DNA from: Candidatus Bathyarchaeota archaeon
GTDB taxonomy: Archaea; Thermoproteota; Bathyarchaeia; 40CM-2-53-6
Direction of reading: 5' to 3'
DNA: 64,000 nucleotides
NCBI GenBank assembly: GCA_963845275.1
Contig: CAWJRR010000002.1
Span: forward strand, 204,901-268,900
Every line of letters starts with the position of its first letter. The stretch's first letter is position 1. The notes under the pieces were generated by a model. That model ran no database searches. It was not told the DNA's origin and was given only the letters and a program-made list of their open reading frames with translations. Shown one piece after another: positions 9,838 to 33,283 of this stretch. Made by a program: the position numbers and the translations under genes.

Positions 9838-10431
9838 ATGTTAAGACCAGTCAAAACCTCCTCTTACACGTCAGCACCCTTGAAAATAGTATTGGGGATA
9901 ACCGGGGCGTCCGGCGTAATATATGGAATAAGATTAGCCGAAGAGTTGCACAACAGCGGATCAGAACTGACCACGATCGTTTCTGACGCCGCGAGGACCG
10001 TGATCGCAACAGAGGTTCCAGAAGGATTAGACCGGCTTGCTAAGGCTGGCCCGATTTTGTCAGAACATGATCTGGGAGCAGAAATCTCATCCGGTTCTGT
10101 GAAATTCGATGCTTCCATCATTTGTCCTTGTTCGATGAAATCGCTATCAGCTATCGCTAACGGATTCGCGTACAATCTAATCTGCAGAAACGTAGACGTT
10201 GCCATCAAAGAACATCGCAAGGTCGTTCTCGTAATTCGGGAGACACCGCTCAGCGAGATACATTTGGATAACATGATCAAGCTTGCTCGACTAGGCGTCA
10301 CCATTATGCCAGCATGTCCGGGGTTCTATCATAAGCCTACGTCGATTGATGAGCTAGTGAATCAATTGGTGGGAAAAATCATGGATTCAATCGGCATCGA
10401 GACATCTCTTTACAAAAGATGGGGTGACTGA
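9838..10431 (+). CDS. ubiX: Flavin prenyltransferase UbiX/Pad1 family
   Basis: Motifs: KIVLGITGASGVIYG, ICPCSMKSLSAIANG, VLVIRETPLS, MPACPGFYHKP. Confidence 0.85.
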   Translation: MLRPVKTSSYTSAPLKIVLGITGASGVIYGIRLAEELHNSGSELTTIVSDAARTVIATEVPEGLDRLAKAGPILSEHDLGAEISSGSVKFDASIICPCSMKSLSAIANGFAYNLICRNVDVAIKEHRKVVLVIRETPLSEIHLDNMIKLARLGVTIMPACPGFYHKPTSIDELVNQLVGKIMDSIGIETSLYKRWGD

Positions 10432-10443
10432 GGAAATAGAAGT

Positions 10444-15418: not shown

Positions 15419-16993
15419 GTGCCTTTGCGGGGTAGCGAAGATACGTCAGAGAATGAGAAAATGGTTCAGCATGTAATGTTACCTAGAAAAGTAACACGAG
15501 AAGAATTGAATTCACTTGTAGACAAAGCTGCAGATTTGATCAGAACTGCTGTGGATTACAAGTTCATTCTTGTTTTGTTGTTCTTGAAGAGAATCAATGA
15601 CCTTTGGAAAGCTGAGAAACGGCAGTACAAGCAGAGACTGGTGAAAGAGGCAGATTTGTCCGAGAAGGAAGCCGAAGAACAGAGCGAGAAACTTGAGTAC
15701 ACTTTCAAGATTCCGAAACAGTTCCTTTGGGACGAGATAACCAAAGACGTCAAGACTCTGCCAGAAAAACTTGCAACAGCAATAGGTGAAATTGCAAAAC
15801 TGAACACAGAACTTCAGGGTGTCATCAATAGGGTCGACTTCCTAGAATTTGCTAGGAATCAAGAGAACCGGGACCTCTTGCGACAATTGGTTGAGCTTTT
15901 CAATAGATACGATTTGGCTGGCGAGGAAGTTTCCCCAGACGTGCTCGGAGATGCATACGAGCACATACTCATGAAATTTGCACCCGACCGAGCAAAGGAG
16001 GGCGAGATTTACACCCCCAGAGAAGTCATCAAACTGATGGTCGAGATTCTTGATCCCAAACCTGGCGAGAAAGTGTATGACCCATGTTGTGGTTCCGGCG
16101 GTATGCTGATAATTTCGTACTTGCACGTGCACGACAAGCTCGGAGAAAAAGAAGCCAGGAAACTGTTCCTGTACGGGCAGGAGAGAAATCCAGAAATTTA
16201 CGCTGTCGGCGAAATGAACCTACTGCTTCATGACATCAAGAACGCTAATCTGGCGAACGGTGACACACTGGAGAGTCCGAGATTCAGGGACAATGGCAAG
16301 CTAGAGCAGTTCGAGGTAGTTATCGCAAATATCCCTTGGAATCAAGATGGTTACAACGAGGGAAGGCTCAAAGAAGCTAATTTCCGTGAGAGGTTCACTC
16401 TTGGTTTTCCTCCTCAAAATAGCGCCGATTGGGCCTGGATTCAACACATGCTTGCCTCGGCAAAAGAGAAAGGCAGGATTGCAGTCGTAGTTGACAACGG
16501 CTGCCTTTTCAGAGGAGGACAGGAGAAGAGTGTCAGAAGCAAGATTGTAGGAAAAGACTGGATTGAATGCGTTATCGTTTTGCCAGAAAAGCTCTTTTAC
16601 AATACGGGTGCCCCAGGAGCCATTATCGTCTTCAATAAGAACAAGCCCAAAGAGAGAGATAACAAGATACTCTTCATCAACGCTTCGAACGAGTATGTTA
16701 CACATCCATCAGTTAGAAGATTGAACGCTCTATCATCAGACAACATAGGAAAGATCGTAAGCGTCTATCAGAAGTTCTCTGCGGATCCTGGTTTCTCCAT
16801 AGCAGTGGAAATGAAAGAGATTAGCAAGAATGACTGCAATCTGAATGTGTCACTGTACGTAATGCCAATTGAAGAGGCAGAGAGGATTAGCATTTTCCAA
16901 GTCTATTCAGAGTTGAAGAAGCTGGAAGCCGACAGAGAGAAGATCAACGCACAGCTAGAAGAGGTGTTGGTTCAAATAAAAGAGATTGAGTGA
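15419..16993 (+). CDS. hsdM: Type I restriction-modification system, DNA methyltransferase subunit M
   Basis: HsdM N-terminal helical domain, AdoMet motif DPCCGSGGML, catalytic motif IV variant ANIPW. The likely true start is the ATG at 15461. Confidence 0.9.
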   Translation: MPLRGSEDTSENEKMVQHVMLPRKVTREELNSLVDKAADLIRTAVDYKFILVLLFLKRINDLWKAEKRQYKQRLVKEADLSEKEAEEQSEKLEYTFKIPKQFLWDEITKDVKTLPEKLATAIGEIAKLNTELQGVINRVDFLEFARNQENRDLLRQLVELFNRYDLAGEEVSPDVLGDAYEHILMKFAPDRAKEGEIYTPREVIKLMVEILDPKPGEKVYDPCCGSGGMLIISYLHVHDKLGEKEARKLFLYGQERNPEIYAVGEMNLLLHDIKNANLANGDTLESPRFRDNGKLEQFEVVIANIPWNQDGYNEGRLKEANFRERFTLGFPPQNSADWAWIQHMLASAKEKGRIAVVVDNGCLFRGGQEKSVRSKIVGKDWIECVIVLPEKLFYNTGAPGAIIVFNKNKPKERDNKILFINASNEYVTHPSVRRLNALSSDNIGKIVSVYQKFSADPGFSIAVEMKEISKNDCNLNVSLYVMPIEEAERISIFQVYSELKKLEADREKINAQLEEVLVQIKEIE

Positions 16994-17576
16994 CATGGTG
17001 CAGACTGTTTTTCTTGATACCGGCGTGATCTTAGACTATCTTGAAAATAGACACCAAGAAGTCAGAGATATAATTGCTCAACTCATGCTTCTTCACAAGA
17101 AAGCCAGAATCGTAGTAGCAACCTCAGTCTTCAACATCGCTGAGGTGATTGACAAGGAGTTCGAGATTCATTTCGTTGGTTGGTGTTTGAATGAGAGAAT
17201 GTCGTACGACGAGACGGTAAACAGACTGAGGAGTGACCCTAAGCTGGTCAAAGAAGTCTCGGAGAAGAATCAGAAGGCAGTGGAAAAGAGAATAAATGAT
17301 TTCGTTTTCAAGAATCAGATAACTGTGCTGTCGCTTTCTGCTGAATCAGAGCAGTACGAGGAGCAGTATGAGGAACTCTATACACTAATCTACGAACGCC
17401 AACTGAGATCGCAAGACGCATTAATTATCGCAACAGCGCTAACCAACAAGGTAACCTACTTTGTGTCTAATGACTCGGACCTCATCAGGAAAATCGGAGA
17501 AATGCTCGACAGTTACAACCTGAGGGACGAGGGTCTGCGCAAGTCGTTCCGTAACAACGTGCTAGAGGCGGTCTGA
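16986..17576 (+). CDS. PIN-domain (predicted RNase) protein embedded in the R-M operon
   Basis: Acidic PIN residues are in order: FLDTGVILDY, NIAEVIDKE, QDALIIATAL, FVSNDSDL. It overlaps the hsdM stop by 8 nt and ends 2 nt before hsdS. Confidence 0.6.
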   Translation: MSDMVQTVFLDTGVILDYLENRHQEVRDIIAQLMLLHKKARIVVATSVFNIAEVIDKEFEIHFVGWCLNERMSYDETVNRLRSDPKLVKEVSEKNQKAVEKRINDFVFKNQITVLSLSAESEQYEEQYEELYTLIYERQLRSQDALIIATALTNKVTYFVSNDSDLIRKIGEMLDSYNLRDEGLRKSFRNNVLEAV

Positions 17577-17578
17577 AG

Positions 17579-18859
17579 ATGGAAGAAAACATGGTCTACA
17601 GGGAGAAGGAGTTCAGCGATAGTGAGATTGGGAAAATCCCTAGGGACTGGGACTCTGCCAGACTGCAGACAATGGGAGGATTCCAATATGGAATTACTGC
17701 TTCAGCCATTGAAGAAGATACGGGCACTAAACTCCTAAGAATTACCGACATAAAGAACGGTGGAATCAACTGGGAAGAAATGCCAAATTGCAAGATTAGA
17801 CCAGCAGAGCTCAGGAGATATGAAATCTCCGTTGGAGACGTACTGTTCGCACGAATAGGCGCGACTACAGGGAAAACCTGCTACATAGACAAATCAGTGA
17901 AGGCGGTCTTCGGTTCTTATCTCATAAGATTTCTGCCGAAAACTGACGTTGACACCAAGTTCCTGTACTTCTTCGCCCAGTCAAAGCTATACTGGGACCA
18001 GGTTAATCGCAAGAAAGAGGGGCAACTGAAAAAAGGGCTGAACATCGCAACTTTGGGTAGCATGATTCTTCCGAGACCTCCTTTCCAAGAACAGCACAAA
18101 ATCGCAGCGATCCTCATGATTATTGATGGAGCTATTCAGAAGACCAACGAAATCATAGCGAAAACTCGACTCCTCAAGAAAGGCCTGATGCAGCAGCTCC
18201 TAACCAAAGGAATAGGGCACAAGGATTTCAAGTATAGTGAAGAGGTTGGCGCTGATATCCCGAAAGAGTGGAAGGTAGTTAGCCTTGGAGACGTGACGAT
18301 CATCCGGTATGGATTAGGACGGCCCCCAGAATCCGATGAGAATGGAGTTCCAATGATACGGGCAACGAACATAAAGCGAGGTGCCATCGTTGAAACGGGT
18401 CTTTTCAGGGTGAAACGTTCGGCTATTCCGAAGTCTCGCAATCCCTTCCTTCGAACAGGGGATGTTATCGTGGTCAGGAGTGGAGCTTACACAGGGGACA
18501 TAGCTCGTGTTACAGAGAAATGGGAGGGTGCAATTGCTGGGTATGATCTGATTCTTTCGCCTACAAAGAGGACGATCAACTCGGTCTATCTGGCGAACTA
18601 TCTCCTTGGCTCAAGAGTTCAAACGTACTTCTCGCGGCTCAGAGTTCGTGCAGCTCAGCCACACTTAAACTCAGATCAGGTTTCCCGTGTCCTCATTCCG
18701 CTTCCTTCACTTACTGAACAGGAACAGATTGCCAGGACTCTCTCCGTAGTTGACAAGAAACTCGAAATTGAAAGGAATGAAAAGGCAAACTTACAAGAAA
18801 TCAAACAGGCACTTATGGATTTGCTGCTTACGGGAAAAATCAGGATTAAGGTAGATTGA
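17579..18859 (+). CDS. hsdS: Type I R-M specificity subunit S
   Basis: Two target-recognition halves, each followed by a conserved helical spacer (PPFQEQHKIAAIL... and LPSLTEQEQIARTL...). Confidence 0.9.
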   Translation: MEENMVYREKEFSDSEIGKIPRDWDSARLQTMGGFQYGITASAIEEDTGTKLLRITDIKNGGINWEEMPNCKIRPAELRRYEISVGDVLFARIGATTGKTCYIDKSVKAVFGSYLIRFLPKTDVDTKFLYFFAQSKLYWDQVNRKKEGQLKKGLNIATLGSMILPRPPFQEQHKIAAILMIIDGAIQKTNEIIAKTRLLKKGLMQQLLTKGIGHKDFKYSEEVGADIPKEWKVVSLGDVTIIRYGLGRPPESDENGVPMIRATNIKRGAIVETGLFRVKRSAIPKSRNPFLRTGDVIVVRSGAYTGDIARVTEKWEGAIAGYDLILSPTKRTINSVYLANYLLGSRVQTYFSRLRVRAAQPHLNSDQVSRVLIPLPSLTEQEQIARTLSVVDKKLEIERNEKANLQEIKQALMDLLLTGKIRIKVD

Positions 18860-21800
18860 ATGACCTATAGTGAGAAGGGCACAGTCGAAGATTTCATCAT
18901 TCAAGAACTCAAGAAGCTGGGATGGAAGTACTTAACTCAAAAGGAAATAGAGGCAAAACGAAAGGATAGGCTTGAGGAACCGCTTGTTCTGGAGAACCTC
19001 AGAGAGTCAGTTAGAAAGCTCAATCCCGACATAAAGTTCACCGATGCTGATCTTGATTTTGTAGCTGTCTCGCTGAGAACGATACCATCGAATCTCGAAG
19101 GAATCAGAAGGGTTCTTGACATTTTCAGAAATGGCTTGGTTGTCCCTATACAGAAGGAGAACAAGGAGAAAGTCATCAGACTATTCGACCCTGAAAACGT
19201 CGATAAGAACGAATTCGTTGTAACGAATCAATTCAAACTCGAAGGCCCGAACAGGAACATCAGAGCGGACATTATTCTTCTTGTCAATGGTATCCCCCTA
19301 GTCTGCATCGAATGCAAGAGTCCGACCGGAGAGAGTGTCGATTGGACGACAGCCTATATACAGATAAAGAGATATGAGCGAGAGGCTCCTGAGCTTTTCA
19401 AGTATGTTCAATATTCGATAGCAACCGACGGAATGAAAACGAAGTACTTCCCCAATGGCTTCAACGAGGAGAACAAGGATTTTCTTAGCGAATGGAAAGA
19501 TCCGTATCCATTCAAAGTCGAGGAATTCAAAGAAGACATTCTGAAAATCACGATATACGGTCTCTTGTCAAAGTCGAATCTCCTCGACTTGATTGAGAAT
19601 TTCACGTTCATCAGGAAAGAGATAGACAAGTCTACGAAGATAATGACTCGGTACATGCAGTTCAGAGCATCGGAGAAGATCTATCGAAGAGTAATCAACA
19701 CTCTAGGGAAGAACGAAAACAGCAAGTTCGGCTTGATATGGCACTGGCAAGGCTCCGGCAAAACCTACACGATGGCATTCTCTGCGTGGAAGCTCTACAA
19801 CTCGCCTAAAGCCGAACGGCCTAGCATTTTCGTGCTTGTTGACAGAAAAAACCTTGAAGAACAGATTGAGAAGGATTTTGGCTTCATTGAAGTTCCGATA
19901 GAGAAGATTGAGCACGTAGATGGCTTGATCGAGGTTTTGAAATGGGGCAAGGAAGGAAAAAGAGGGATCTTTCTAGTAACCATTGAAAAGTTCAGACCGA
20001 AGGAATTTGCGAAGCTGAAAAAAGAAAGCGGCAAGATAGAAATCAAAAGGGAGAACGTGATTGTTCTCGCCGACGAGGTGCATAGAACCCAATACGGAAA
20101 ATTCAGAACGGTGATGAAAAGTGTTTTCAAGAAAGCCTTCATCTTCGGTTTTACGGGCACACCGCTCTCTAAACCAGAAAGGAACACGTTCCAGAAGTTC
20201 TGTCCGAGAGGAGAACTCTACCTCGATAGGTATTCGATGCTCGACGTGTTGAAGGATGGATTCACTGTCGAGCTCTCTTATGAGCCGAAACTCCCGGATT
20301 ATCACCTTAACGAGAAAGAGTATCGACAGTTCGTGAAATTCGAGGAGGAAGAGCTGAAGACACGATCGAAAGCAGAACAGAAGGAAATCAGGAAAAAGGT
20401 CAAGGTAATCGTCGCCTTTGTCAAGAAAAAGGAGCGGATAGAGGCGATCACCGAAGACATAGCTCATCACTTCAAGGACATAGTGGAGCCCACCGGCCTT
20501 AAGGCAATGGTTGTAACCATAGACAGAGATGCATGCATCCGATACAAGAATGCATTGGACCAAATTCTGCCGCCGAATTGTTCAGAGATTGTGATGACGT
20601 TCAATGCGAACGATAAGGAACCAATTAGAACCTACTTTGACAAGCTATCTAAGAAGTACGATTCTAAAGATCAAAAAGAAATTCATGACAAGATCATTGA
20701 ACGCTTCAAGGAAGCCAAAGAACTCAAGATTTTGATTGTAACTGACATGCTGATCACGGGATTTGACGCTCCTGTCCTTTGGACGATGTACCTCGACAAA
20801 CCATTGAAAGAGCACAGAGTTCTTCAGGCCATAGCACGAACGAACAGGCCGTATCTGAACAAGAAGTTTGGTTTGATTATCGATTATATTGGCATCCTTG
20901 CAGAGATGCAGAAGGCGTTCCAGAAATTCGAAGCAAGCGAAGCAAAAGACATCCGTGTCGTTATAAGACAGCTCGACAAGGAGAAAGACGAATTCAGAGA
21001 GCTGCTCCAGAAGGCTCTGAGAATTTTCCAGTCTGTGAAGAAGGAGGATACACGAGAAAGTCTAGAGGCTGCGATGAATGTTCTTGTGAATCCCGACATA
21101 GGCAAGCAATTTGAAATTACCATGAGAGCGCTCATGAAGTCGTACGAAATGCTCAGTGGAGACGAGTTTCTTGGGCCGTATCTTTCTGACTACACATGGC
21201 TCGCCAAAGTGCTTGTTGCCTATAACAAGCGGTTCAAGAAGAAAGATGTAGACGAGCTGAAAATAATAGAACTCTCAAAGAAGACATTCCAACTCATACA
21301 ACAAACAATCGACGTCAAAGAGATCGAGGATACATATCCGACTTTGAGTATTGATGCAAAATACGTTGAAGCCCTCAAGAAGTCTAAGCCTAATACAATC
21401 GGCGCTGCGATAGATATCATTACTAACATTCAGCACGAATCGAGAACGCATTCTAGCTCACCGTTCTTCCTCAACCTGAGTAGAGAAGTCGAAAGAACCT
21501 ATGAAGAACTGAGAACAAGAAAGATCGACACCCAAGAAGCGGTACGCAAGGCACTGGATTTCTCCGAAAAAATCGCGGAGTGGAAGAGGGAAGAGGAGGA
21601 AATAGGAAAAGAGAAGTATCCTCTATATGAAGCGCTGAAGACCGTCCTTCCCGACATCGAAAAGCAAAAGGCAGTGAAATTCATCACGCGTCTTATTGAC
21701 CATCTGAAAAAGTTGGATTTGCTCTTTGAAGGATGGCAACTGCAGAGGGATGTCCGCCGAAAGACATTGACTGAAACAAGACTGTTAATCTTGTCAGAGT

Positions 21801-21868
21801 TCAAAGGGCATCGTGACAAGATCGACGAACTTACAGAGCAAGTGTTCGGGGCCTTGGAGGGAGAATAA
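18860..21868 (+). CDS. hsdR: Type I R-M restriction subunit R (nuclease + SF2 translocase)
   Basis: PD-(D/E)xK motif ADIILLVNGIPLVCIECK, Walker A WQGSGKTYT, DEAH-like LADEVHRTQ, helicase C motifs (QAIARTNR). The start abuts the hsdS stop. Confidence 0.92.
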   Translation: MTYSEKGTVEDFIIQELKKLGWKYLTQKEIEAKRKDRLEEPLVLENLRESVRKLNPDIKFTDADLDFVAVSLRTIPSNLEGIRRVLDIFRNGLVVPIQKENKEKVIRLFDPENVDKNEFVVTNQFKLEGPNRNIRADIILLVNGIPLVCIECKSPTGESVDWTTAYIQIKRYEREAPELFKYVQYSIATDGMKTKYFPNGFNEENKDFLSEWKDPYPFKVEEFKEDILKITIYGLLSKSNLLDLIENFTFIRKEIDKSTKIMTRYMQFRASEKIYRRVINTLGKNENSKFGLIWHWQGSGKTYTMAFSAWKLYNSPKAERPSIFVLVDRKNLEEQIEKDFGFIEVPIEKIEHVDGLIEVLKWGKEGKRGIFLVTIEKFRPKEFAKLKKESGKIEIKRENVIVLADEVHRTQYGKFRTVMKSVFKKAFIFGFTGTPLSKPERNTFQKFCPRGELYLDRYSMLDVLKDGFTVELSYEPKLPDYHLNEKEYRQFVKFEEEELKTRSKAEQKEIRKKVKVIVAFVKKKERIEAITEDIAHHFKDIVEPTGLKAMVVTIDRDACIRYKNALDQILPPNCSEIVMTFNANDKEPIRTYFDKLSKKYDSKDQKEIHDKIIERFKEAKELKILIVTDMLITGFDAPVLWTMYLDKPLKEHRVLQAIARTNRPYLNKKFGLIIDYIGILAEMQKAFQKFEASEAKDIRVVIRQLDKEKDEFRELLQKALRIFQSVKKEDTRESLEAAMNVLVNPDIGKQFEITMRALMKSYEMLSGDEFLGPYLSDYTWLAKVLVAYNKRFKKKDVDELKIIELSKKTFQLIQQTIDVKEIEDTYPTLSIDAKYVEALKKSKPNTIGAAIDIITNIQHESRTHSSSPFFLNLSREVERTYEELRTRKIDTQEAVRKALDFSEKIAEWKREEEEIGKEKYPLYEALKTVLPDIEKQKAVKFITRLIDHLKKLDLLFEGWQLQRDVRRKTLTETRLLILSEFKGHRDKIDELTEQVFGALEGE

Positions 21869-22251
21869 TGAGCAGAGCAATTGTGCAAACTGGATTGTGT
21901 GATGAGCGTCAGGTTGAGGCGTTCTACTTGACACTCTCTGATATCTACGAACAAATAAGAACGGAAAGAAGAATTGATGTCTTCGGTAACTTGGATTTCG
22001 AGGTTGTTAGAAGCATAGATGGTAAGAAAAATAGGATTGCAAAACTTAAAGGGAGCAAGATACTCGTACATGTGAACGCTAGGCTATTGCCGAAGAGTGC
22101 CCTAAGATATGTCATAGCCCATGAGATTGCTCACACGCTTACGAAGAGGCATACGAGGCGATTCTGGAAAGTTGTAAAAGCCATAGACCCCAAGTTCGAG
22201 ATAGGCCAGAGTCTTCTCATGAGGCACGGCAAAAGATTTCAAGCTGATTAG
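21868..22251 (+). CDS. YgjP/DUF45-like zinc metallopeptidase (HExxH), R-M associated
   Basis: YVIAHEIAHTLTKRHTRRFWKVV follows the DUF45 pattern. The start overlaps the hsdR stop (TAATG). Confidence 0.6.
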   Translation: MSRAIVQTGLCDERQVEAFYLTLSDIYEQIRTERRIDVFGNLDFEVVRSIDGKKNRIAKLKGSKILVHVNARLLPKSALRYVIAHEIAHTLTKRHTRRFWKVVKAIDPKFEIGQSLLMRHGKRFQAD

Positions 22252-22287
22252 TATCAGCGCACTTCATTAGAGCGGCGGCGGGGGCGG

Positions 22288-22301
22288 CGCACCACGATAA
22301 C
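22288..22301 (+). repeat. Second copy of CGCACCACGATAAC; local context also resembles the island attR junction
   Basis: CGGCGCACCACGATAACC (22.3 kb) versus CGGCGCCAGAACGATAACC (40.84 kb). Confidence 0.45.
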
Positions 22302-22382
22302 CACACACATGAAAACAACTGACGGTGTGAGCCGGTGGTCCTGAATTTGTTCTTACAATGGCGCCATGCAGTGTGGGTTTGA

Positions 22383-23905: not shown

Positions 23906-24244
23906 TTGTCAACGAGAAAATACCGTGATCCACTGCTAAACGTGTCGGATACTTCACGCGGAACAACTCAAAATGACTTGCCCTGCAGCCCGGAGATGTA
24001 TCTCGAAAAATTCGAAGAAGCCGTAGGGCCCTTGCGAAAGATCCGGATTGATCACACTCGACTTCATGTCAAATTAGCGTCAATTGACCTCTGCCTCGAT
24101 TTCGATTCAAAGAAGCAGGCCGAACTGACATTCGAGGAATTGCATAACATGCACGGGAAGACGGTGGGGATACTCAGACAATCAACTAACTGCGTTCGTG
24201 TTCGCACCGTCCCCTACTTCACTGAGCGAGATGAACAAGTTTGA
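23906..24244 (+). CDS. Hypothetical protein, translationally coupled to the downstream transposase-like gene
   Basis: 112-aa TTG-start ORF with a 4-nt overlap with the 24241 ORF. Confidence 0.35.
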   Translation: MSTRKYRDPLLNVSDTSRGTTQNDLPCSPEMYLEKFEEAVGPLRKIRIDHTRLHVKLASIDLCLDFDSKKQAELTFEELHNMHGKTVGILRQSTNCVRVRTVPYFTERDEQV

Positions 24245-25857
24245 CGGACGACAGAGACATCTCCCTGTATCGGTTTCTGCCTGACAAAGACGGTGACATT
24301 CCGACTTCAGATTCCGGAAAATGCAAAGTGGTTGGTGCTATCGACTCGACGACTCTCAACCGCAAACCAGGGTGGAGGATAGGAGCGAAGCACGCGATGA
24401 GAACGCTGCGTGACCGAAAACGTGAGACGCAATGCCAGCGCATAAGTTGCCTAGATAGGTATTGTGTGAACCTTCAACCCGAAGTCAGCATAGTGAACTC
24501 ACCCCCCAATGTTCCAATGATCTATTCCCGTTTGAACTACGACCAAACTCTTCCTTCCATTACCCCTCTGTGTCCTCCCACCATGATCCGATCTCTGGAT
24601 CATCCCATTAATCTGACATACTCGACTCCCGAGGAAATGCTACGAAAGTCAGTGCTAGAATCTCCCCCTCTCACTTGCACTCACTGTGGTTCCACTAATG
24701 TGACGTTGAACCCGTGGGTCCACAACGTGGAGTCCTACGTCTGCTCGGCTTGCAAACGGAAATTCGTTCCTCCCAAGTGCATAAGCCAGATTGTTGGGTG
24801 GAATATAGTGAAGGAAGTTGTTGACGACATATACGGGTCAGGCAATACGATTCGTGACGAAGTAGCATCTCTCGCAAGGAAACAAATACCTGTAAATCCC
24901 ATGTTCATCAGTCGAATGCTCAACACAATCGGAGCTGCAATTGACGCCCCAATGACGATAGCGCGGAAGTACCGACTGAAATTTTCCCCCTACTTGTGCA
25001 TCGACCTGACGTATATCCCCATCCGCAGGCATCGCACGCCAAACAGTGAACTTACTGAGTTTCCTGTCCTCTTCGCAGGAGATCCAATGACCACATATGC
25101 GTTCCAGGGTCGAATGGTCCATGTCGACCTACCAAAGTCGCGAGAAGACAAAGTGTTAGTTGACGCGTACATCAGAGAGATCGATGAAATAATGAAAGCC
25201 CTTGGGCGCGAGTATGAGAATAGCCTAAGAGTGGTAATTGTTGACCCGGAACGAGCACTAATTTCAGCCATCAAAACACGACTTCCTACGAAACGAATAC
25301 AGGTTGATACAGTTCACGTGATCAGAAAAGTCGAGAAGATACTGCCTACAATCCGAAAATCCAAGTTACCAGAGGATGAGCTTGAGGCTAGACGAAAATT
25401 GAAAGACACCATAAGAAGCATCATGGCCTCAACTTCTAGGATACAGTTTGACGTCCGACTTTCTGATCTGCTGACCCACTACGACGGATTTGACGAAAAA
25501 AAGAAAAAAGCTCTGCGAGTTGTGCAAAGATACAAAGACATGTTGAAAACACACTTTGCATTTGAAGACGCGCCTAAAACGAGCAACTTCGCGGAACGTC
25601 TAATTCAGGAAGTTGAAGAGCCTCTGGATAAGAGGAGAGGTTTCAATTCCTATGATTCAGCGGATCGCAATCTAAGCCTTTATCTGAATTGCTTTAACTT
25701 CAGAAAGATTCGAAGTAGCAAAACGGGATTGGAAGGATACACCGCTTTTCAGCTTGCGGGTGGGTTGATAGATACTCATTGGTTGGATGTAGTGTACAAA
25801 GGAGAACAGAGAACATGGCGAGCTCGCGTTCGGAAGGAATCGAAGAATATTCGCTAA
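24241..25857 (+). CDS. Transposase-like protein (zinc ribbon + IS256/Mutator-like DDE pattern)
   Basis: Zinc ribbon CTHCGS...CSACKRKF. Candidate DDE residues lie in CIDLTYIPI, VVIVDPERALISAIKTRLP..IQVDTVHVIRKV and TSNFAERLIQEVE. The order and spacing resemble IS256/MULE transposases. Confidence 0.4.
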   Translation: MTDDRDISLYRFLPDKDGDIPTSDSGKCKVVGAIDSTTLNRKPGWRIGAKHAMRTLRDRKRETQCQRISCLDRYCVNLQPEVSIVNSPPNVPMIYSRLNYDQTLPSITPLCPPTMIRSLDHPINLTYSTPEEMLRKSVLESPPLTCTHCGSTNVTLNPWVHNVESYVCSACKRKFVPPKCISQIVGWNIVKEVVDDIYGSGNTIRDEVASLARKQIPVNPMFISRMLNTIGAAIDAPMTIARKYRLKFSPYLCIDLTYIPIRRHRTPNSELTEFPVLFAGDPMTTYAFQGRMVHVDLPKSREDKVLVDAYIREIDEIMKALGREYENSLRVVIVDPERALISAIKTRLPTKRIQVDTVHVIRKVEKILPTIRKSKLPEDELEARRKLKDTIRSIMASTSRIQFDVRLSDLLTHYDGFDEKKKKALRVVQRYKDMLKTHFAFEDAPKTSNFAERLIQEVEEPLDKRRGFNSYDSADRNLSLYLNCFNFRKIRSSKTGLEGYTAFQLAGGLIDTHWLDVVYKGEQRTWRARVRKESKNIR

Positions 25858-25887
25858 CCCAAAATTGTATTGCGAAAGGAAACAATT

Positions 25888-26009
25888 CTGTAACGAAACC
25901 CCGATTCGTTACAGATACTGAGCAAGTGTAAGACCCACCGTAACGTTACGCCACCCTTATTGGTGCTGTAACATTACAGTCGGTTTCGCCTGAATCTGCA
26001 CTCTGTAAC
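25888..26009. repeat. Cluster of four TGTAAC/GTTACA-based palindromes
   Basis: The cluster has a 10-bp-stem hairpin CTGTAACGAA-N7-TTCGTTACAG (25888-25914) and the palindrome CGTAACGTTACG (25939-25950). It also has CTGTAA-CA-TTACAG (25966-25979) and CTGTAAC (26003-26009). Confidence 0.6.
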
Positions 26010-26105
26010 AATCGAGGGGTATGGATAAGGTACCATCAAGTGCGAGTAACAAGGATGTTGAAGATGAGAGGTTATAGCGGACTGCAGAAATCGGAATTTC
26101 AGGAG

Positions 26106-27212
26106 CTACATTCTTTTCGTTGCGTTTCGAGTTAGCTCCAGCCATTTGTTTCTCATCTTGAGCGTTAGACCTGCACGCTCGCTAGGAGATGCCCCTCCTA
26201 AGTGTGCGTGAGGTCGGACGAAGTTGTAGTATATCATTGATCCTTGAGCGAAAGTATTTCCCGTGTCCAGGCTCTCTAAACCCTTCGTTAGGTCGTAACG
26301 TGGTCTGAGAGTACCGTGTAATCGCTCCACTACGTTATTGTTGCTCGGATCAGTAAATTTGGGGCTTGAAATGTGTCTTCGAATCTGCAGCTGCTTGGTT
26401 GCTTTCGGATATGACTTTAACCCGTCCGAGACGACGCAGTCCGATTTCTTGCCTGAATACTCTATCGCTTTCTCCAACACATGGCAGGCCTCTTCTGTGC
26501 TCCTGCCGGTAGTGATTTCTGACACGAGCAAGAATCTTGTTTTCCTGTCCAGCACATTCCATAGGTAGCTTTTCTTCCCGTTGACTTTCACGACCATTTC
26601 ATCCACATGCCACTCTCCACCCACCTGCGGAGTCATCTTAGCAGTAAACTTCGAAACTAGTTTCACATACTTCGTTATCCAGCGATAAACGCTCATGTGT
26701 GACACTTCACAGCCGTAAACCGTTGACAAATGATGCTGAATGTCACGGATGCTGACGTTCTTGAAGTAGAGATCCAATGCAGCAATGATCATGAGTGGGT
26801 CGTTACGCATCTTCGAGAAACCGAACCTGTCACTAAACTTGTATCCGCAACGTTTGCATTGATAACGTGCTGTAGACCCGGATTTGGTGCGTCTTTTTCC
26901 AATGCTCACTGTATCCTCGGGACTTGAATTACATCTTGGACAGGTCAACAACTCATAGTTCTGATTCGTCATGAGAATTTGCGGGAGCCTGTTCAGGAAC
27001 CCAATGGCATAGATATGTTTGCATGATGTCCCCGACTTTTCATTGTCAGGACAGTCGCAGACCCACTTTCCATTCAGCCATTCGACCGAGTACCAATTGT
27101 TTGATTTCTGAGAATGAACCTGATAGTTGTGCTGCGCTAATCTTCTTATTTGGCCACCACGTGAAACAATTTCCATTCCTCGAAGCTGTCGCATCCGTGA
27201 ACCGGCCATCAA
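26106..27212 (-). CDS. SWIM zinc finger + zinc ribbon + IS6/IS240-family DDE transposase
   Basis: SWIM motif CDCPDNEKSGTSCKH; zinc ribbon CPRCNS...CKRCGYKF; DDE core WHVDEMVVKV...YLWNVLD, VVSDGLKSYPKA, NNVVERLHGTLRPR, YYNFVRPH. Confidence 0.75.
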   Translation of the reverse strand: MMAGSRMRQLRGMEIVSRGGQIRRLAQHNYQVHSQKSNNWYSVEWLNGKWVCDCPDNEKSGTSCKHIYAIGFLNRLPQILMTNQNYELLTCPRCNSSPEDTVSIGKRRTKSGSTARYQCKRCGYKFSDRFGFSKMRNDPLMIIAALDLYFKNVSIRDIQHHLSTVYGCEVSHMSVYRWITKYVKLVSKFTAKMTPQVGGEWHVDEMVVKVNGKKSYLWNVLDRKTRFLLVSEITTGRSTEEACHVLEKAIEYSGKKSDCVVSDGLKSYPKATKQLQIRRHISSPKFTDPSNNNVVERLHGTLRPRYDLTKGLESLDTGNTFAQGSMIYYNFVRPHAHLGGASPSERAGLTLKMRNKWLELTRNATKRM

Positions 27213-27242: not shown

Positions 27243-27830
27243 TTATTCCGAAAAATCACCGAACGGGAAAACGGGTAGAGGCATGTCCACAGATTGGGTT
27301 TCTTTGTTCATGCCGTTGAACGGGCAACTTTCATTTGCGCAGGTATAGCAAACGTCCTCGTGTGGCTTGTAATTTACGGCTGCCTTCTTTGGGTCTTTGG
27401 CCAGCAGCTCCCTGGTTAAGCGGGCTCTCTCCCGAGCTTCCCAGATGAATTGATCGTCAAGGACGATGTCTTCATGCCGGTTGGAGAGAACTAATTCATT
27501 TTGATCGTTAGGGTACAGAGCTGCTTGAAGTTTGTGGACCTCTCTGAGCTTATTAGCTGACTTTACTTCCACGAGCCTGGTTTTATCGGTGGGGTCGACG
27601 AAGATAAGATCAATTCGAAACCCGGTTCCGCGCTTTTCGATGGCGTCTAACTTGTAACCTAACTTTAGATGCCTCGCAATCACCCTTAGAGCTGCCGTCG
27701 CGTGCAAACCATGAAACTTGGACGCATTCTCCATGCTGAAAGGTGCTGAAACGTATGCTGGGCAGAGTATCTTTCTAGCTAAAAGGGAAGGAGGCGGCCA
27801 GATTCTTGAGACCGCCTTCATGGATGCCAT
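27243..27830 (-). CDS. Solo Cas4-like PD-(D/E)xK nuclease with Fe-S cysteine set
   Basis: N-terminal Cys (ILCPAY), RIDLIFVD...LVEVKS (D...ExK), HKLQAALY (QxxxY), C-terminal CYTCANESC. No CRISPR array or other cas gene is present in the window. Confidence 0.6.
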   Translation of the reverse strand: MASMKAVSRIWPPPSLLARKILCPAYVSAPFSMENASKFHGLHATAALRVIARHLKLGYKLDAIEKRGTGFRIDLIFVDPTDKTRLVEVKSANKLREVHKLQAALYPNDQNELVLSNRHEDIVLDDQFIWEARERARLTRELLAKDPKKAAVNYKPHEDVCYTCANESCPFNGMNKETQSVDMPLPVFPFGDFSE

Positions 27831-28005
27831 CCCCTCCGCAGTAACGCTAGCTGAACCTTTCGAAGCTCAGCTCGCTTTCCATTACGCGAAGCGGAACGGA
27901 TCGCGTCATCCAAGAGCAATAAAAATCTCTCTTGGCGTTCCGAGCCATCCAACATGGGATGGAAGACCAGAGTTTGGTTGCGGTTGCTCAACTTCGATAC
28001 ACAAT

Positions 28006-28050
28006 CGCTATATTATATATAGCGCAATATAAATATAGCGATTCGCTATA
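28006..28050. promoter_or_regulatory. Operator-like array of four CGCTATA half-sites in two palindromes within an A/T-rich divergent promoter region
   Basis: CGCTATA-N5-TATAGCG (28006-28024) and TATAGCG-ATT-CGCTATA (28034-28050). The array lies between the Cas4-like gene (minus) and the AbrB-like gene (plus, start 28071). Confidence 0.6.
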
Positions 28051-28070
28051 TTATCCATCGGTGGTAATGA

Positions 28071-28229
28071 TTGCCCATAACCCTCAAGCGAACTCTCGTC
28101 AAAATAGGCGGGAGTCTACGACTGACTGTTCCGCGAGAAGTAGCGGATATTCTGAAGGTTAAGGAAGGAGACGAGATTGAATTTTCCACCACGAATGGGG
28201 ATGTCGTGATACGGAAAGCAAGAAATTGA
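28071..28229 (+). CDS. AbrB/SpoVT-type (swapped-hairpin) DNA-binding protein, 52 aa
   Basis: TTG ORF not in the track: (M)PITLKRTLVKIGGSLRLTVPREVADILKVKEGDEIEFSTTNGDVVIRKARN. This is the classic SpoVT-AbrB pattern. It competes with the motif-less track ORF 27932-28162. Confidence 0.6.
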   Translation: MPITLKRTLVKIGGSLRLTVPREVADILKVKEGDEIEFSTTNGDVVIRKARN

Positions 28230-28306
28230 ACCGAAAGAGATTCAGGTCCATGAATGATGGTCGTTGCAGGTGAATCATCTTCACATGCCTTACCGTCTCA
28301 TGTTCC

Positions 28307-28489
28307 ATGAAATGCCCTATCAGAGTCATGAATTGTCCGAGATGCCACAGTCCAGCTCAAACAATGAATAAGTCTCTAGGGTGGGATTGGGGAAACGGAG
28401 AAGCCGACGTAATCATCGAATACTATTGTACTGGTTGCGGACGTAGATGGGAACATTGGGAAGGAACCTGTAAGATCGAAGAGAAGTGA
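28307..28489 (+). CDS. Small zinc-ribbon protein
   Basis: 60 aa, CPRCH...CTGCGRRW. Confidence 0.45.
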   Translation: MKCPIRVMNCPRCHSPAQTMNKSLGWDWGNGEADVIIEYYCTGCGRRWEHWEGTCKIEEK

Positions 28490-28576
28490 CATGAAGGCGC
28501 CCACTGCACCAGTCTAGTAGTCTCTTCCCGCGAAGCGTTATTACCGCTTAACATTACCCTCTCGGGTGAGTACAAC

Positions 28577-29728
28577 TTGTCTGTCCCTTCAAAGCTACAT
28601 GAACATTATACAGATTTTGTAGACCTGTTCTTCATTGTTGGAATTTCTCTTGGTGTTGAGCATTCGATCAGTATCTTTGCAACTCCTCTATCACTACCAT
28701 TTGCCTTTCTAGTCACTGCGTTTATCATAATTGGTCTGAGCTGGGTCTTCTATCACGACTCGACTGACAAGTTGCCGTACGTTAGCATTGAAAAAAGTGG
28801 GCTCCGTTTCTTCTTTGACTCTGCAATAGCCTTCTCCTACATTTTTCTGATTCTAAATGTTGACAGCTATACAAATTTCACCATCGTAGTCTTCATAATC
28901 TATTTTCTGTACGGTGTGCATGGATTTTCAACTGTGTGGGAATGCGGGTGGTTCCGAGGCTGGCCGCTGAAACCAACTTCGACTCCAAGTCTCTGGTTTG
29001 TCTTTTCTCTCATTTTCGTGTTAATTGCATATGCTTCATCATACGTTGGCGGGTGTTTGACTCTCGTTCTCGTCTTGGTCGGGATCGGACTTTCAAGGTT
29101 CCTCAGGCATAGCAAAAAGGCGCGACCTCAAACATTGCGTTTTGCTCAATGGGCCCATCTGCAGCCACGCCCAGTGGTCGCGTTGGACGTTGACGGTGTT
29201 CTGGCAGAACAGGTTCCCCCCGTCCTTGCTAGGGCCGAAAAAGAGATGGGAGTAAGAATGAGAAAAGAGGAGATTACAGCATGGGATACCCCAGTAGGCG
29301 GTGTACCGTTCGATAAACTCATTCTGAAGTATCTTCTTGATCCAGAATTCGTAATGTCTATGCCCATCGTGGAAGAAGCTCAGTCGGCCGTGAAAATGAT
29401 TAGAGCCAATTGCAAAGTAGTTGTGGCAAGCAGTAGACCCAAAGAGACTGAAGCATATACGATCAAGTGGCTGGTCGATAACTTCGAATTAACGTCTGGC
29501 ATGTTTCGAAATACGACCGGTACTAAAAAATCAGCTATATCTGCACACGTTCTAATCGACGATTACATTCCTAACCTCAAGAGTTTCACAGACAGGGGCC
29601 ACGGTCGTAAGGGAATTCTATTTTCTCAACCGTGGAACAATCAACAAGATGAAATTGCGGAACTTAAAGAGAAGAACATAATCACGGTCAAGAACAGTTG
29701 GAAAGAAATCGAGAAAATTCTCTCGTGA
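28577..29728 (+). CDS. Polytopic membrane domain fused to a 5'(3')-deoxyribonucleotidase (NT5C/HAD) domain
   Basis: The N-terminal ~190 aa carry 5-6 hydrophobic helices. The C-terminal domain has HAD motif I (VVALDVDGVLAE), ITAWD, VVVASSRPKE, KWL and LIDDYIPNL...ILFSQPWN, in the order typical of NT5C-type deoxynucleotidases. Confidence 0.65.
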   Translation: MSVPSKLHEHYTDFVDLFFIVGISLGVEHSISIFATPLSLPFAFLVTAFIIIGLSWVFYHDSTDKLPYVSIEKSGLRFFFDSAIAFSYIFLILNVDSYTNFTIVVFIIYFLYGVHGFSTVWECGWFRGWPLKPTSTPSLWFVFSLIFVLIAYASSYVGGCLTLVLVLVGIGLSRFLRHSKKARPQTLRFAQWAHLQPRPVVALDVDGVLAEQVPPVLARAEKEMGVRMRKEEITAWDTPVGGVPFDKLILKYLLDPEFVMSMPIVEEAQSAVKMIRANCKVVVASSRPKETEAYTIKWLVDNFELTSGMFRNTTGTKKSAISAHVLIDDYIPNLKSFTDRGHGRKGILFSQPWNNQQDEIAELKEKNIITVKNSWKEIEKILS

Positions 29729-29738
29729 GGCTAGACAA

Positions 29739-30416
29739 GTGGCTAACAACAATCCGGAACGCAAAGATGCAGAGAAAGGATTCCTAAGATCATACCCAAC
29801 GACCGGCTATTTCCTTTGCGCAGCCTCTATTGCGGCTGTCGCCTACCTGATGATACTTATCCTCCAGTTGAAACTGTATGAGTTCGATACGACTGTTCTT
29901 ACAACGATCATGAATGTTACCGTGGAACTCTTGGTAGCGGGAAGTGTCTTCTTAGTTGCTCTTGAAATGATTCAGAACATCTATACTCCCCTTGTCGAAA
30001 TCCGTAACCAACTAGCTGATATAGTAAGGAACTTACCGAAATTACCAGTTCAGGAATCAGTCGATCAAACAATCAAGGCTGGCCAGCAACTAGAGCCGCT
30101 TCAGGATTTTGTTCGCAGGCTTCAAAATAGATATTTGCTGATCAGACGCATGTTCATTTTCGGATTCTTAGTCGTTCTGGTGGCTGATCTCATGCTCGAA
30201 TTAGTCCACAGTCTATTCTTCTCTGCACTATCATCATTGCGTGGTATCTTGTTCGCGGTTGAGATTGCCATGCTTGTGGAGGCATTGAGCGTTTTTCTCC
30301 AAGCAATGCACATTGCGGTCGGATACACCGACAAGAATATTCCGTCTTTGTCAAAATCTTCGCCTATCTCTCGCACTCGCCTGTGTAAGTATATGGACAG
30401 TATATGGAAAGGCTAG
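29739..30416 (+). CDS. Integral membrane protein (about 4 TM), unknown function
   Basis: 225-aa GTG-start ORF 10 nt after the nucleotidase gene. Two hydrophobic helix pairs are separated by a charged helical linker. Confidence 0.5.
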   Translation: MANNNPERKDAEKGFLRSYPTTGYFLCAASIAAVAYLMILILQLKLYEFDTTVLTTIMNVTVELLVAGSVFLVALEMIQNIYTPLVEIRNQLADIVRNLPKLPVQESVDQTIKAGQQLEPLQDFVRRLQNRYLLIRRMFIFGFLVVLVADLMLELVHSLFFSALSSLRGILFAVEIAMLVEALSVFLQAMHIAVGYTDKNIPSLSKSSPISRTRLCKYMDSIWKG

Positions 30417-30424
30417 GGTTGATT

Positions 30425-30556
30425 ATGCCCATAGAATTCGAGGTTAAGATAAATCGTGTTCATGGCTCGTTGCGAATGACTGTACCTAAGGAAGTGGCAA
30501 CTATAGTTCTAGTTGGATTAACTGACAGCACGATGAGCGTTCGAAAAAAAGTTTGA
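30425..30556 (+). CDS. Second AbrB/SpoVT-like small protein, 43 aa
   Basis: ATG ORF not in the track: MPIEFEVKINRVHGSLRMTVPKEVATIVLVGLTDSTMSVRKKV. It starts 8 nt after the membrane protein gene. Confidence 0.45.
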   Translation: MPIEFEVKINRVHGSLRMTVPKEVATIVLVGLTDSTMSVRKKV

Positions 30557-30832: not shown

Positions 30833-31636
30833 TTAGCCAATTTCTTCGACGTCCCGGTACCATTTCTTTGATGTTCCAGTTTTCGCTCGTTTTTCCCAGG
30901 TCGATGTTTTTGGTTCTTCGTTAATGGCCTGTAGTAGCCTATCGATTTTAGCTTCGACAGTAGCCTGCTCCTTAGGTGTAACGTCAAGTTTGCCCAAATA
31001 GTTTCTAAGTTTCTTGAGATTTGTTGTGACGGTATACCAGAATCCCCAATCGTTTGCCAGACTCCTAGCAATGTGAGGGGCATTAATGAGTTCGTCGTCT
31101 CCCGATCCTATCTCGTGACCTACAAGGAGTGCAGTGCAATCCTTAAGATCCTTCTCGTTTATCTGTACTATCTGCATCTTCTCTAGCAACAAGTCAGCGA
31201 GCGGAATTGTTGGGGAGTCTTTCTCAAGTCTGCCAGCGAAATTGACGGTGTGACACATTTCAAGTTTGTCAAAGAAGACGTCTGCGTGGTACTGTCTTTC
31301 AGGTGTTACATAGACGGCACGTCCCGCCCAAAGTCCAAGAAGTTGCGCTGCGCGGTCCGGCGTGTAGCCGAGTCTCTCTAGAAGCTTTTCCACATTGCTC
31401 CTCGTCTTTCCATACGTGATATAGTCCAAGTCGCTAAACTCCTCGCCTGAAGCTGACTTCCTAGCTAGTCTTGCATGAAGGCCGGTTAGGTCACCTGTGT
31501 GAATTCTGACGGCCACGGCTCCGATAACTCTGATGATGAGACCTTCTTCCGCGGCGCTCTGGACCGTTGTGACGCACAGATCACTTAAGAAATTTGAAAC
31601 GGATTTAGCAGTTGCAGCCAATGTTCTTCTTGGCAC
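30833..31636 (-). CDS. Nucleotidyltransferase-fold protein (NTP_transf_5 / AbiEii-like pattern)
   Basis: GLIIRVIGAVAVRIH...EEFSDLDYITYG...VEKLLERLGY fits the minimal NTase hG[GS]...D-x-D motif followed by a helical domain. Confidence 0.4.
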   Translation of the reverse strand: MPRRTLAATAKSVSNFLSDLCVTTVQSAAEEGLIIRVIGAVAVRIHTGDLTGLHARLARKSASGEEFSDLDYITYGKTRSNVEKLLERLGYTPDRAAQLLGLWAGRAVYVTPERQYHADVFFDKLEMCHTVNFAGRLEKDSPTIPLADLLLEKMQIVQINEKDLKDCTALLVGHEIGSGDDELINAPHIARSLANDWGFWYTVTTNLKKLRNYLGKLDVTPKEQATVEAKIDRLLQAINEEPKTSTWEKRAKTGTSKKWYRDVEEIG

Positions 31637-32353: not shown

Positions 32354-33283
32354 TCAGCCTGATGTCAGAATATAACCCTTGACTCTTCTAGATTCGAGAC
32401 TGATAACCGCTCCTCGCAGAATACCCTCACCATATTCGCTTCCGGGGTTTACACACAACGTATTGCCGATCATGATGGTCCCTCGGGATTCGTGAATGTG
32501 TCCGAAAAGCCCCACAAGCGGTTGATATTTCTCAATGGCATTTCGGACTGCCTTGCTGCCTACAGAGACGAATTCAGCCTTCGCGATCAGTTCTTTCGTC
32601 ATTTTGGGTGCTTCGTCAAGCCTTGATTCGTACGGAGGAGCGTGAAAATTAAAGATGGCATTCTTCATGTCTTTAACCCGTGAAGCCAAGTCGCTGATGA
32701 TCTCCGTCAGGTGCTCCTCGGAAGTGTCCCGGGGTAGATGCCAAGGGGTCATATTGGCATAACCCGTACAAATCATTTCATGGCCGTCAACATCGACGAG
32801 TTGGTTATGGCAGTAGACTAATGATTCTGACGTTTTAAGTACGTCATCAATTTCGTACGGATCGTCATTTCCTGCAGTGACGAAGACCTTTTTTTGGGGA
32901 AGTTTTTCCTTGGTGAGCGCAGCCCAATCCCTTAGTCGGTTCGAGGCCAGCTTAATGAACAGTTCCTGAGTCTTAGCTTTGTCAGATGTGATCTTCGCCC
33001 ATTCATCGGGAGATGTTGCGAAATCATAATAGCCTAGATCTCTTATGAGTTTCAAGAGTTTCGTAATTTCCGTTGGTGATTTTGCTGAGTAGTCTCTGCT
33101 CAAGAAGTTAGTAGTGAGACTACCGTCACCCATCTTCATCAAAGGGATTACCGCTTTTCCGGTAATGTCCCCACCAAGAATCATTTTATCTGCTTTGTAG
33201 AAGCTTGCCGCCCCGATAAATTTCAGAAATGTAATCTCAGAACCGTGCATATCTGTTGAAAAGAATATTCTGGTCACTCCCAA
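32354..33283 (-). CDS. Calcineurin-like metallophosphoesterase
   Basis: Motifs in order: FFSTDMHGS, LGGDITGK, TAGNDDP, NFHAPP, GHIHE. Confidence 0.75.
   Translation of the reverse strand: MGVTRIFFSTDMHGSEITFLKFIGAASFYKADKMILGGDITGKAVIPLMKMGDGSLTTNFLSRDYSAKSPTEITKLLKLIRDLGYYDFATSPDEWAKITSDKAKTQELFIKLASNRLRDWAALTKEKLPQKKVFVTAGNDDPYEIDDVLKTSESLVYCHNQLVDVDGHEMICTGYANMTPWHLPRDTSEEHLTEIISDLASRVKDMKNAIFNFHAPPYESRLDEAPKMTKELIAKAEFVSVGSKAVRNAIEKYQPLVGLFGHIHESRGTIMIGNTLCVNPGSEYGEGILRGAVISLESRRVKGYILTSG

Follow-up and report, generated by a model that had tools for sequence, protein, structure and literature searches.

A candidate membrane-bound NT5C nucleotidase and its gene neighbours in a Bathyarchaeota genomic island

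The locus and the TM-NT5C protein

We analysed a 64,000-nucleotide stretch of a Candidatus Bathyarchaeota archaeon genome (GenBank assembly GCA_963845275.1, contig CAWJRR010000002.1, positions 204,901 to 268,900 of the forward strand), hereafter 'the window', to which all coordinates refer unless a homologous locus (L and a number) is named. Our subject is a group of five genes at 28071-30556, and above all the third of them, ORF3, whose product joins a domain of six transmembrane helices (6TM domain) to an NT5C-type nucleotidase domain, and is called TM-NT5C below. A preliminary description of this DNA had presented the five genes as a candidate conflict system, and the five same-strand open reading frames (ORFs) on which it was built were all found on the plus strand:

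28071-28229, + strand: ORF1, AbrB/MazE-type protein, 52 amino acids (aa)
28307-28489, + strand: ORF2, small candidate zinc-ribbon gene, 60 aa
28577-29728, + strand: ORF3, TM-NT5C, 383 aa, TTG start
29739-30416, + strand: ORF4, membrane protein, 225 aa, GTG start
30404-30556, + strand: ORF5, apparently degenerate AbrB paralogue, 50 aa; 43 aa from an alternative ATG at 30425

The spacing is 77 nt between ORF1 and ORF2, 87 nt between ORF2 and ORF3, and 10 nt between ORF3 and ORF4; ORF4 and ORF5 overlap by 13 nt, or leave an 8-nt gap if ORF5 starts at 30425. The last three genes are thus packed as tightly as had been said (10 nt or less). The five proteins also proved to be unclassified, as none of them was matched by a component model of PADLOC-DB v2 at E<=1.

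ORF3 is made up of two domains, located as follows:

28577..29110, + strand: 6TM domain, with helices at residues 6-29, 40-65, 71-93, 98-123, 137-154 and 159-178
29168..29653, + strand: NT5C/HAD 5'(3')-deoxyribonucleotidase-like domain (PF06941), residues 198-359

The catalytic domain had been recognised by eye as an NT5C/HAD deoxynucleotidase, and profile searches bear this out: residues 198-359 match PF06941 with an E-value of 1.4e-14 and a score of 54.8 bits, where the cut-off is 24.8. The HAD catalytic motifs are present as D204-x-D206, S285/R287, K318 and D328-D329. In 18/18 family members, which range from archaea to Planctomycetota, D204, D206, R287, K318, D328-D329, the cap residue W236 and QPWN at 351-354 are invariant; S285 of motif II is invariant in the nine closest sequences and otherwise replaced by T (once by A, once by N). 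When a profile of the ORF3 family was compared with PDB sequences, it matched 3bwv (E 4.9e-13), and a Foldseek search with the catalytic domain gave the same entry (E 2.8e-8, TM score 0.85), together with the human mitochondrial and cytosolic 5'(3')-deoxyribonucleotidases, mdN and cdN (E about 1e-5, TM scores 0.62-0.69). The AlphaFold model of ORF3, computed from an alignment of 18 sequences (pLDDT 90.8, pTM 0.83), consists of six transmembrane (TM) helices (6-178), an amphipathic helix and a Rossmann-like HAD fold with an NT5C-type cap. This agrees with the multi-pass membrane domain that had been described ahead of the nucleotidase. We consider it likely that the ORF3 product works as a nucleotide phosphatase. 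The segment after TM6 is rich in K and R, from which a cytoplasmic location of the HAD domain is predicted.

The HAD core, the small cap and the four catalytic motifs are common to ORF3 and the NT5C family, which includes human mdN/cdN, the deoxyribonucleotidase-like Staphylococcus epidermidis protein 3bwv and SPbeta YorS-type proteins. However, identity to the solved members is only about 20%, and the characterised members of the family are all soluble, whereas the domain in the ORF3 family is fused to, or encoded beside, a 6TM domain.

This membrane domain is modelled with pLDDT values of 87.6-90.8 and carries a set of invariant polar residues (S55, W56, Y68, R77, D81, Y88, Y112, G116, R174 and R177). 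No Pfam family matched it, and a fold search of PDB and BFVD with the domain alone gave no match (best E above 1). A resemblance by eye to TMEM175/DUF1211, LtrA and PnuC motifs was dropped, since these fold searches did not match it. When 1.84 billion proteins were searched with a profile of the domain, 807 representatives matched at E<=1e-3. NT5C is also present in about 60 of the best 146, and a P-loop kinase in one; 83 of these 146 are shorter than 270 aa, 81 of which have neither NT5C motif. One such stand-alone TM-domain protein, P0029, lies at a contig end. The kinase-bearing representative, P0117, is a metagenomic protein of 388 aa in which NT5C is replaced by a P-loop kinase (AAA_33/Zeta_toxin/KTI12-like, Walker A GLPGVGKT). 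Conversely, the two domains are encoded by split, adjacent genes in L060, L067 and L098, that is, in Halobacteriales and Anaerolineaceae genomes and, for L098, on a metagenome contig. By its pattern of conservation, the 6TM domain appears to be more than a hydrophobic anchor, and fusion and fission between the two domains argue that they act together.

A second assembly of this locus (L096, Logan ERR10755942) is 99.9% identical but lacks 2 nt of the A5 run at 29114-29118. The deletion falls in the linker of TM-NT5C and yields two ORFs, of 218 and 184 aa; it may reflect real variation in the population or a fault of the assembly.

The five genes compared across genomes

A word-indexed search of 5.8 billion clusters with the 383-aa protein returned 18 matches. 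Further members, full-length and split, came from scanning 185,579 species genomes; the full-length ones belong to Chloroflexia, Planctomycetota (Aeoliella), Syntrophales, Acidimicrobiales, Desulfobacteraceae, Verrucomicrobiota, Nitrospiraceae, Actinobacteria and Aminicenantales. In total, TM-NT5C is known from 18 independent contexts in archaea and at least nine bacterial lineages, the nearest named genome being a metagenome-assembled genome of a peat Bathyarchaeia (43% identity). The number of contexts was not increased by a metagenome scan, which returned nothing with the single protein and almost only soluble NT5C with the clade alignment. Among the viral contigs of IMG/VR, GenBank phages and PLSDB plasmids there were no full-length members, only soluble NT5C.

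If the five genes formed one system, one would expect the set to recur. It did not. Homologues of ORF1, ORF2, ORF4 and ORF5 were sought by tblastn, six-frame all-versus-all BLASTP and phmmer in the other 17 TM-NT5C contexts, and none was found; nor did any of the four occur in the 22 loci that carry TM-NT5C. The DNA itself tells the same story. In blastn comparisons with L001, L009 and L004 (74-79% identical), homology is limited to 28574-29728, from the start to the stop of ORF3, and the flanking DNA differs from locus to locus. Upstream of ORF3 lies one further conserved element:

28533..28545, + strand: AAGCGTTATTACC, a promoter-like motif located 32-44 nt before the ORF3 start codon TTG

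The corresponding 13-nt motif AAGCGTTATWRCC is found at an equal offset upstream of TM-NT5C in the window, L009 and L001, despite their unrelated flanks, and the copy at 28533..28545 is the only one in the window. We infer that it may be a promoter of ORF3's own, of the type with a transcription factor B recognition element (BRE) and a TATA-like box. A scan for sigma-70 promoters and intrinsic terminators was uninformative for an archaeon.

Two of the partner genes could be followed independently. ORF2 has three homologues (74-85% identity) in two unrelated contexts (L208; L209/L210), none of them accompanied by the other four genes, and the DNA homology to these relatives is restricted to 28280-28487. 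On this comparison ORF2 appears to be a real conserved gene and an independent module. Its naming as a zinc ribbon holds as far as the two CxxC pairs go, but all its matches to zinc-ribbon profiles are sub-threshold. For ORF4, hydropathy shows 2 TM segments, a polar linker of 48 residues and 2 further TM segments, which is the layout of two helix pairs and a long linker that had been read from the sequence. The protein approaches DUF2721 (PF11026) with 22.1 bits and E 1.5e-4, below the cut-off of 28.3; its homologue P0020 reaches 21.5 bits over the same region. These two are the only ORF4 entries in the 5.8 billion clusters (58% identity). P0020 has a HEPN_AbiV gene and a transposase of the IS240 type as neighbours, but no NT5C, and DNA homology to its locus, L095, covers 29733-30325 only. 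ORF4, too, thus looks like an independent module. A 230-aa TM protein beside the TM-NT5C of L006 was considered as an ORF4 relative and rejected (BLASTP E 7, no match to DUF2721).

The two AbrB-type genes that were thought to frame the cassette are not equivalent. ORF1 is a clear member of PF04014 (MazE/AbrB; E 1.2e-10, 41.6 bits against a cut-off of 24.7) and just passes the NCBIfam AbrB domain model TIGR01439 (28.4 bits against 28.3). ORF5 stays below threshold with PF04014 (13 bits, E 0.1, profile positions 3-18 only), and is recognised as a paralogue of ORF1 by 44% identity over the N-terminal 34 aa (E about 1e-4). It reads as a degenerate, truncated copy of ORF1 that lacks the C-terminal half of the AbrB fold, so that one gene of the supposed pair stands and the other is a remnant. 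On its upstream side, ORF1 faces a divergent gene across an unusual intergenic region:

28003..28054, no strand assigned: operator-like region, two palindromes flanking an A/T-rich, TATA-like stretch
27243..27830, - strand: candidate Cas4/RecB-like PD-(D/E)xK gene, 195 aa, divergent from ORF1 and sharing the operator-like region

The palindromes read CGCTATAT-TAT-ATATAGCG at 28006-28024 and ATATAGCG-ATT-CGCTATAT at 28033-28051, in the intergenic stretch between the Cas4-like gene (-) and ORF1 (+). A scan of the window found four ATATAGCG octamers, with 0.94 expected, all of them within 28006-28051, and no copy of the half-site inside the five-gene cassette. The region may act as an operator or promoter. 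Since all the half-sites lie upstream of ORF1 only, ORF1 is probably a local autoregulator, acting on the divergent intergenic region that it shares with the Cas4-like gene, and not a regulator of the cassette. It has the fold, and the upstream palindrome typical of autoregulation, of the AbrB/MazE antitoxins of type II toxin-antitoxin systems. However, profile searches of its neighbours recognised no toxin family (PIN, MazF, Doc or other) adjoining it, ORF1 is a bare DNA-binding domain of 52 aa, and ORF5 is truncated. As for the divergent gene, motifs were noted by eye (D74, E88-V-K90, Q102xxxY106, C161xxC164xxxxC169), and the protein matches PADLOC Cas4b weakly (E 0.006); Pfam, NCBIfam and PDB sequences gave no match.

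We conclude that the five genes are very probably not a conserved system. TM-NT5C recurs without the partners in 17/17 other contexts, ORF2 and ORF4 recur elsewhere without NT5C, DNA homology stops at single ORFs, and the conservation of gene neighbourhood that the five-gene proposal called for was not found across genomes. The case is a caution: tight same-strand clustering in a defence island was no sign of a system here, and comparison between genomes split the cluster into single-gene modules.

Genomic neighbourhoods and possible role of TM-NT5C

The neighbourhoods of TM-NT5C were then considered for the presence of defence genes, counted as DNA methyltransferases (MTases) or restriction-modification (R-M) genes, McrBC, solo Cas1, DUF4365 and STAND-like NTPases. 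Contexts with such neighbours were as follows, the first six rows forming the close archaeal clade (percentages are identities to TM-NT5C):

Window: type I R-M, with insertion sequence (IS) elements between
L009, 78%: McrBC; C-terminal fragment of Cas1 42 nt upstream
L001, 74%: Cas1 remnant upstream; KAP/NACHT-like NTPase downstream
L004, 66%: Cas1 at 3 kb
L010, 53%: type IIG R-M enzyme of 1209 aa
L006/L015, 43%: RHH, Cas1, 230-aa TM protein, TM-NT5C, Cas1 fragment, DUF4365
L018, Syntrophales: Dam-type MTase directly upstream
L024, Desulfobacteraceae: N6_N4 MTase and MvaI/BcnI endonuclease directly upstream
L025: MTase directly downstream, and an HsdR-like helicase
L039 and L051: MTases upstream
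L019: DUF4365 directly downstream

R-M or McrBC genes are present in 8/18 contexts. In the close archaeal clade, R-M, McrBC or Cas1 genes lie beside TM-NT5C in 5/6 contexts; outside it, a DNA MTase or restriction endonuclease (REase) directly adjoins the gene in 5/12. Cas1, or C-terminal fragments of it, occurs within 0-3 kb in 4/6 close archaeal contexts, and in three of these it directly precedes TM-NT5C on the same strand:

L006: Cas1 and fragment, 4055-5287 and 7475-8113
L009: Cas1 fragment, 4440-4919
L001: Cas1 fragment, 5609-5815
L004: Cas1, 9948-11153

These solo Cas1 proteins carry a C-terminal extension, measure about 400 aa and are bona fide members of the family (TIGR00287, 166-184 bits). 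The loci that bear them contain no CRISPR array, Cas2 or PolB; arrays were also sought in the window, with the same negative result. No trace of Cas1 was found in the window by tblastn, nor in the bacterial loci.

The homologues of TM-NT5C thus occur without the partner genes, but their contexts are not housekeeping ones: most have R-M, McrBC, Cas1 or DUF4365 beside them. Because such genes adjoin in about two thirds of the contexts, we regard a role as conflict effector as the most likely one. The reading that we favour, to which we give about an even chance, is that the locus, part of a variable island of defence and mobile elements, was pieced together from single-gene modules that are inherited independently, and that its key part is a single-gene membrane nucleotidase, most likely a stand-alone conflict effector; ORF2, ORF4 and ORF5 would be unrelated passengers. 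Of the conflict-related idea in the preliminary description, it is therefore the membrane nucleotidase that survives, as a single-gene proposition, and not the five-gene cassette. That the role of TM-NT5C is defence we put forward only tentatively, at somewhat less than an even chance. A detailed version, possible but doubtful in our view, would make 6TM-NT5C a single-gene immune effector that travels with R-M (in Bathyarchaeia, with solo Cas1) and blocks virus replication by dephosphorylating deoxynucleoside monophosphates (dNMPs), possibly ones that viruses modify to escape restriction, while its membrane domain senses infection or vents nucleosides. In the reading that we favour, the protein is predicted to depend on Mg2+ and to turn (deoxy)nucleoside monophosphates into nucleosides on the cytoplasmic side of the membrane, and would so deplete the precursor pool of dNMPs, canonical or virus-modified; the 6TM domain would gate this activity upon infection, or would make the depletion irreversible by letting nucleosides leave the cell. 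The adjacency of MTases and REases invites the idea that the target could be modified dNMPs used by viruses against restriction. It may be speculated that the kinase fusion in P0117 fits a nucleoside-conducting 6TM domain.

Several points weigh against a conflict effector inherited as a single gene. Defence-type neighbourhoods were seen in at least 12/18 contexts, well above our expectation for a random gene, but this is a small sample, made up in part of short contigs and without a matched background, and 6/18 contexts (L012, L013, L016, L060, L067 and L094) have no recognisable defence gene. The 'gate' and 'exporter' roles of the 6TM domain are guesses about a domain without known relative. 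The split gene in L096 could mean that ORF3 is dispensable. In this genome the 10-nt gap between ORF3 and ORF4 is compatible with translational coupling, and P0020, the sole other copy of ORF4, abuts an IS and so gives no guide to the ancestral neighbour.

Four other explanations were weighed. TM-NT5C might be a housekeeping or salvage nucleotidase whose membrane domain conducts nucleosides for export, import or house-cleaning, its location in islands being incidental. The contexts without defence genes would agree with this, as would the preponderance of short stand-alone TM-domain proteins (over half of the best 146), the conservation of a soluble NT5C in Methanothrix, and the single 6TM-P-loop kinase fusion, which would fit a transport coupled to phosphorylation or dephosphorylation. 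We nevertheless think it rather unlikely: a family with 18 word-indexed matches in 5.8 billion clusters is very rare and patchy, its flanks differ at every locus, and the frequency of adjoining MTase/REase genes in the outer contexts, and of R-M, McrBC or Cas1 in the close archaeal ones, speaks against such a role. It is improbable that, in the Bathyarchaeia-type clade, the gene is carried by a mobile or recombining element linked to Cas1, which would have lost its Cas1 in the window and which the gene, as its cargo, would serve instead of the host. The proximity of bona fide Cas1 genes devoid of CRISPR array, Cas2 and PolB speaks for such an element, as does a palindromic repeat that follows the gene closely on its 3' side in both L006 and L009 (see below), but Cas1 is missing from the window and the bacterial loci, terminal inverted repeats and target duplications were not identified, and the viral, phage and plasmid collections yielded no full-length member of the family. 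The likeness to casposons and other solo Cas1 loci lies in the absence of a CRISPR array next to the Cas1 that close TM-NT5C homologues adjoin; a casposon proper was rejected, as the homologous loci gave no PolB match in Pfam and no bracketing or terminal repeats, and tblastn found no Cas1 in the window.

A lineage-specific operon, in which the AbrB proteins regulate or neutralise the membrane nucleotidase and the membrane partner cooperates in defence, is a little less probable still. It would account for the common strand and the tight spacing (10 nt, then an overlap), for an AbrB gene and operator-like palindrome at the 5' end, and for the location in a defence island. Against it stand the partners' absence from the other contexts (0/17), their recurrence by themselves elsewhere, the conserved promoter-like motif proper to ORF3, the truncation of the second AbrB and the lack of operator copies within the cassette. 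Finally, HAD phosphatases are chemically versatile, and a catalytic domain joined by a permanent tether to a conserved membrane domain with invariant charged residues might act on a membrane-proximal substrate that the membrane domain presents, for instance a lipid phosphate, a polyprenyl phosphate or the phosphorylated end of DNA or RNA. We hold this to be very improbable, since the best matches in sequence and structure are 5'(3')-deoxyribonucleotidases and not lipid phosphatases, and since the family-typical DxDGVLA, QPWN/IDD and cap W236 are kept.

To return to the conflict-effector reading, its proposed logic has precedents. The dCTP deaminases, dGTPases and SAMHD1-like enzymes found in defence islands are single soluble enzymes which act on deoxynucleoside triphosphates (dNTPs) and starve viral DNA synthesis of precursors. 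TM-NT5C would follow the same logic, but differs from them in fold, homology and substrate level (dNMPs instead of dNTPs); PADLOC models did not match it. Within PF06941, the dTMP phosphatase Dtm of phage PBS1 removes one dNMP from the precursor pool in a virus-host conflict (PMC12697855). Dtm is, however, soluble and virus-encoded, and serves the virus by enabling dU-containing DNA (PMC12697855), whereas TM-NT5C is chromosomal, membrane-bound by prediction, and was not found in the viral and phage collections searched. A literature search for membrane NT5C in defence returned no description, and no counterpart to the combination of a conserved novel 6TM domain with NT5C in a chromosomal, defence-island-associated protein is described in Pfam, PADLOC v2 or PDB, or in the literature that could be searched. 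If TM-NT5C is indeed a defence gene, nucleotide-depletion immunity would gain a new step, at the monophosphate level and at the membrane; an uncharacterised 6TM family with about 800 representative clusters would be introduced; and the adjacency to MTases and REases in at least five bacterial lineages and in archaea would suggest that restriction and control of the precursor pool cooperate.

Some features of the TM-NT5C neighbourhoods deserve separate mention. A DUF4365 gene is found directly 3' of TM-NT5C in both Acidimicrobiales (L019, 4476-5675) and Bathyarchaeia (L006, 8110-9924), an arrangement that crosses domains of life. The only flanking gene common to two TM-NT5C loci is a 267-aa ORF (30833-31636, - strand), which has an apparently split homologue in L004 (2501-3221, - strand), about 3 kb from TM-NT5C; it matched no family and by eye resembles a nucleotidyltransferase (GxxAxxxH...SDLD). 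Two distantly related loci carry the palindromic repeat GTGTGTGTGCGCACCACTATACCCACACACAC close behind their TM-NT5C stop codons, one copy being inverted relative to the other, and the repeat also occurs at other gene ends of a Bathyarchaeia island:

L006: 7290-7325
L009: 6143-6175
L015: 1941, 10570, 16504 and 18579

A search of IMG/VR gave no copy. A degenerate relative occurs in the window at 22281-22330, directly after the gene that closes the type I R-M operon. The repeat could be an element of the repetitive extragenic palindrome (REP) or miniature inverted-repeat transposable element (MITE) kind, a terminator or a recombination site.

Other features of the island

The setting of the five genes had been described as rich in defence and mobility genes, and this is the case upstream of them:

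15419-21868: type I R-M operon, with HsdR matching PADLOC REase_I (E 2e-118)
24241-27212: two transposases

The R-M operon ends 6.7 kb upstream of ORF3, with IS elements between. A PIN-domain gene (16986-17576, + strand) sits between hsdM and hsdS of the operon, and a YgjP-like metallopeptidase gene (21868-22251) comes after hsdR. The transposases are followed by several unclassifiable ORFs, and from about 34 kb on there are housekeeping genes. A calcineurin-like metallophosphoesterase at 32354-33283 (- strand) matches the PADLOC candidate family PDC-S10 (E 3.6e-10). A DUF2099 match was obtained in the window, and a TBP gene in the homologous locus L010, both of which point to an archaeon. Near the left end of the window, an ORF of 1709 aa (132-5261) contains a tandem repeat at 989-3139, with a unit of 336 nt, 6.5 copies and 91% matches; it probably encodes a repetitive surface protein.

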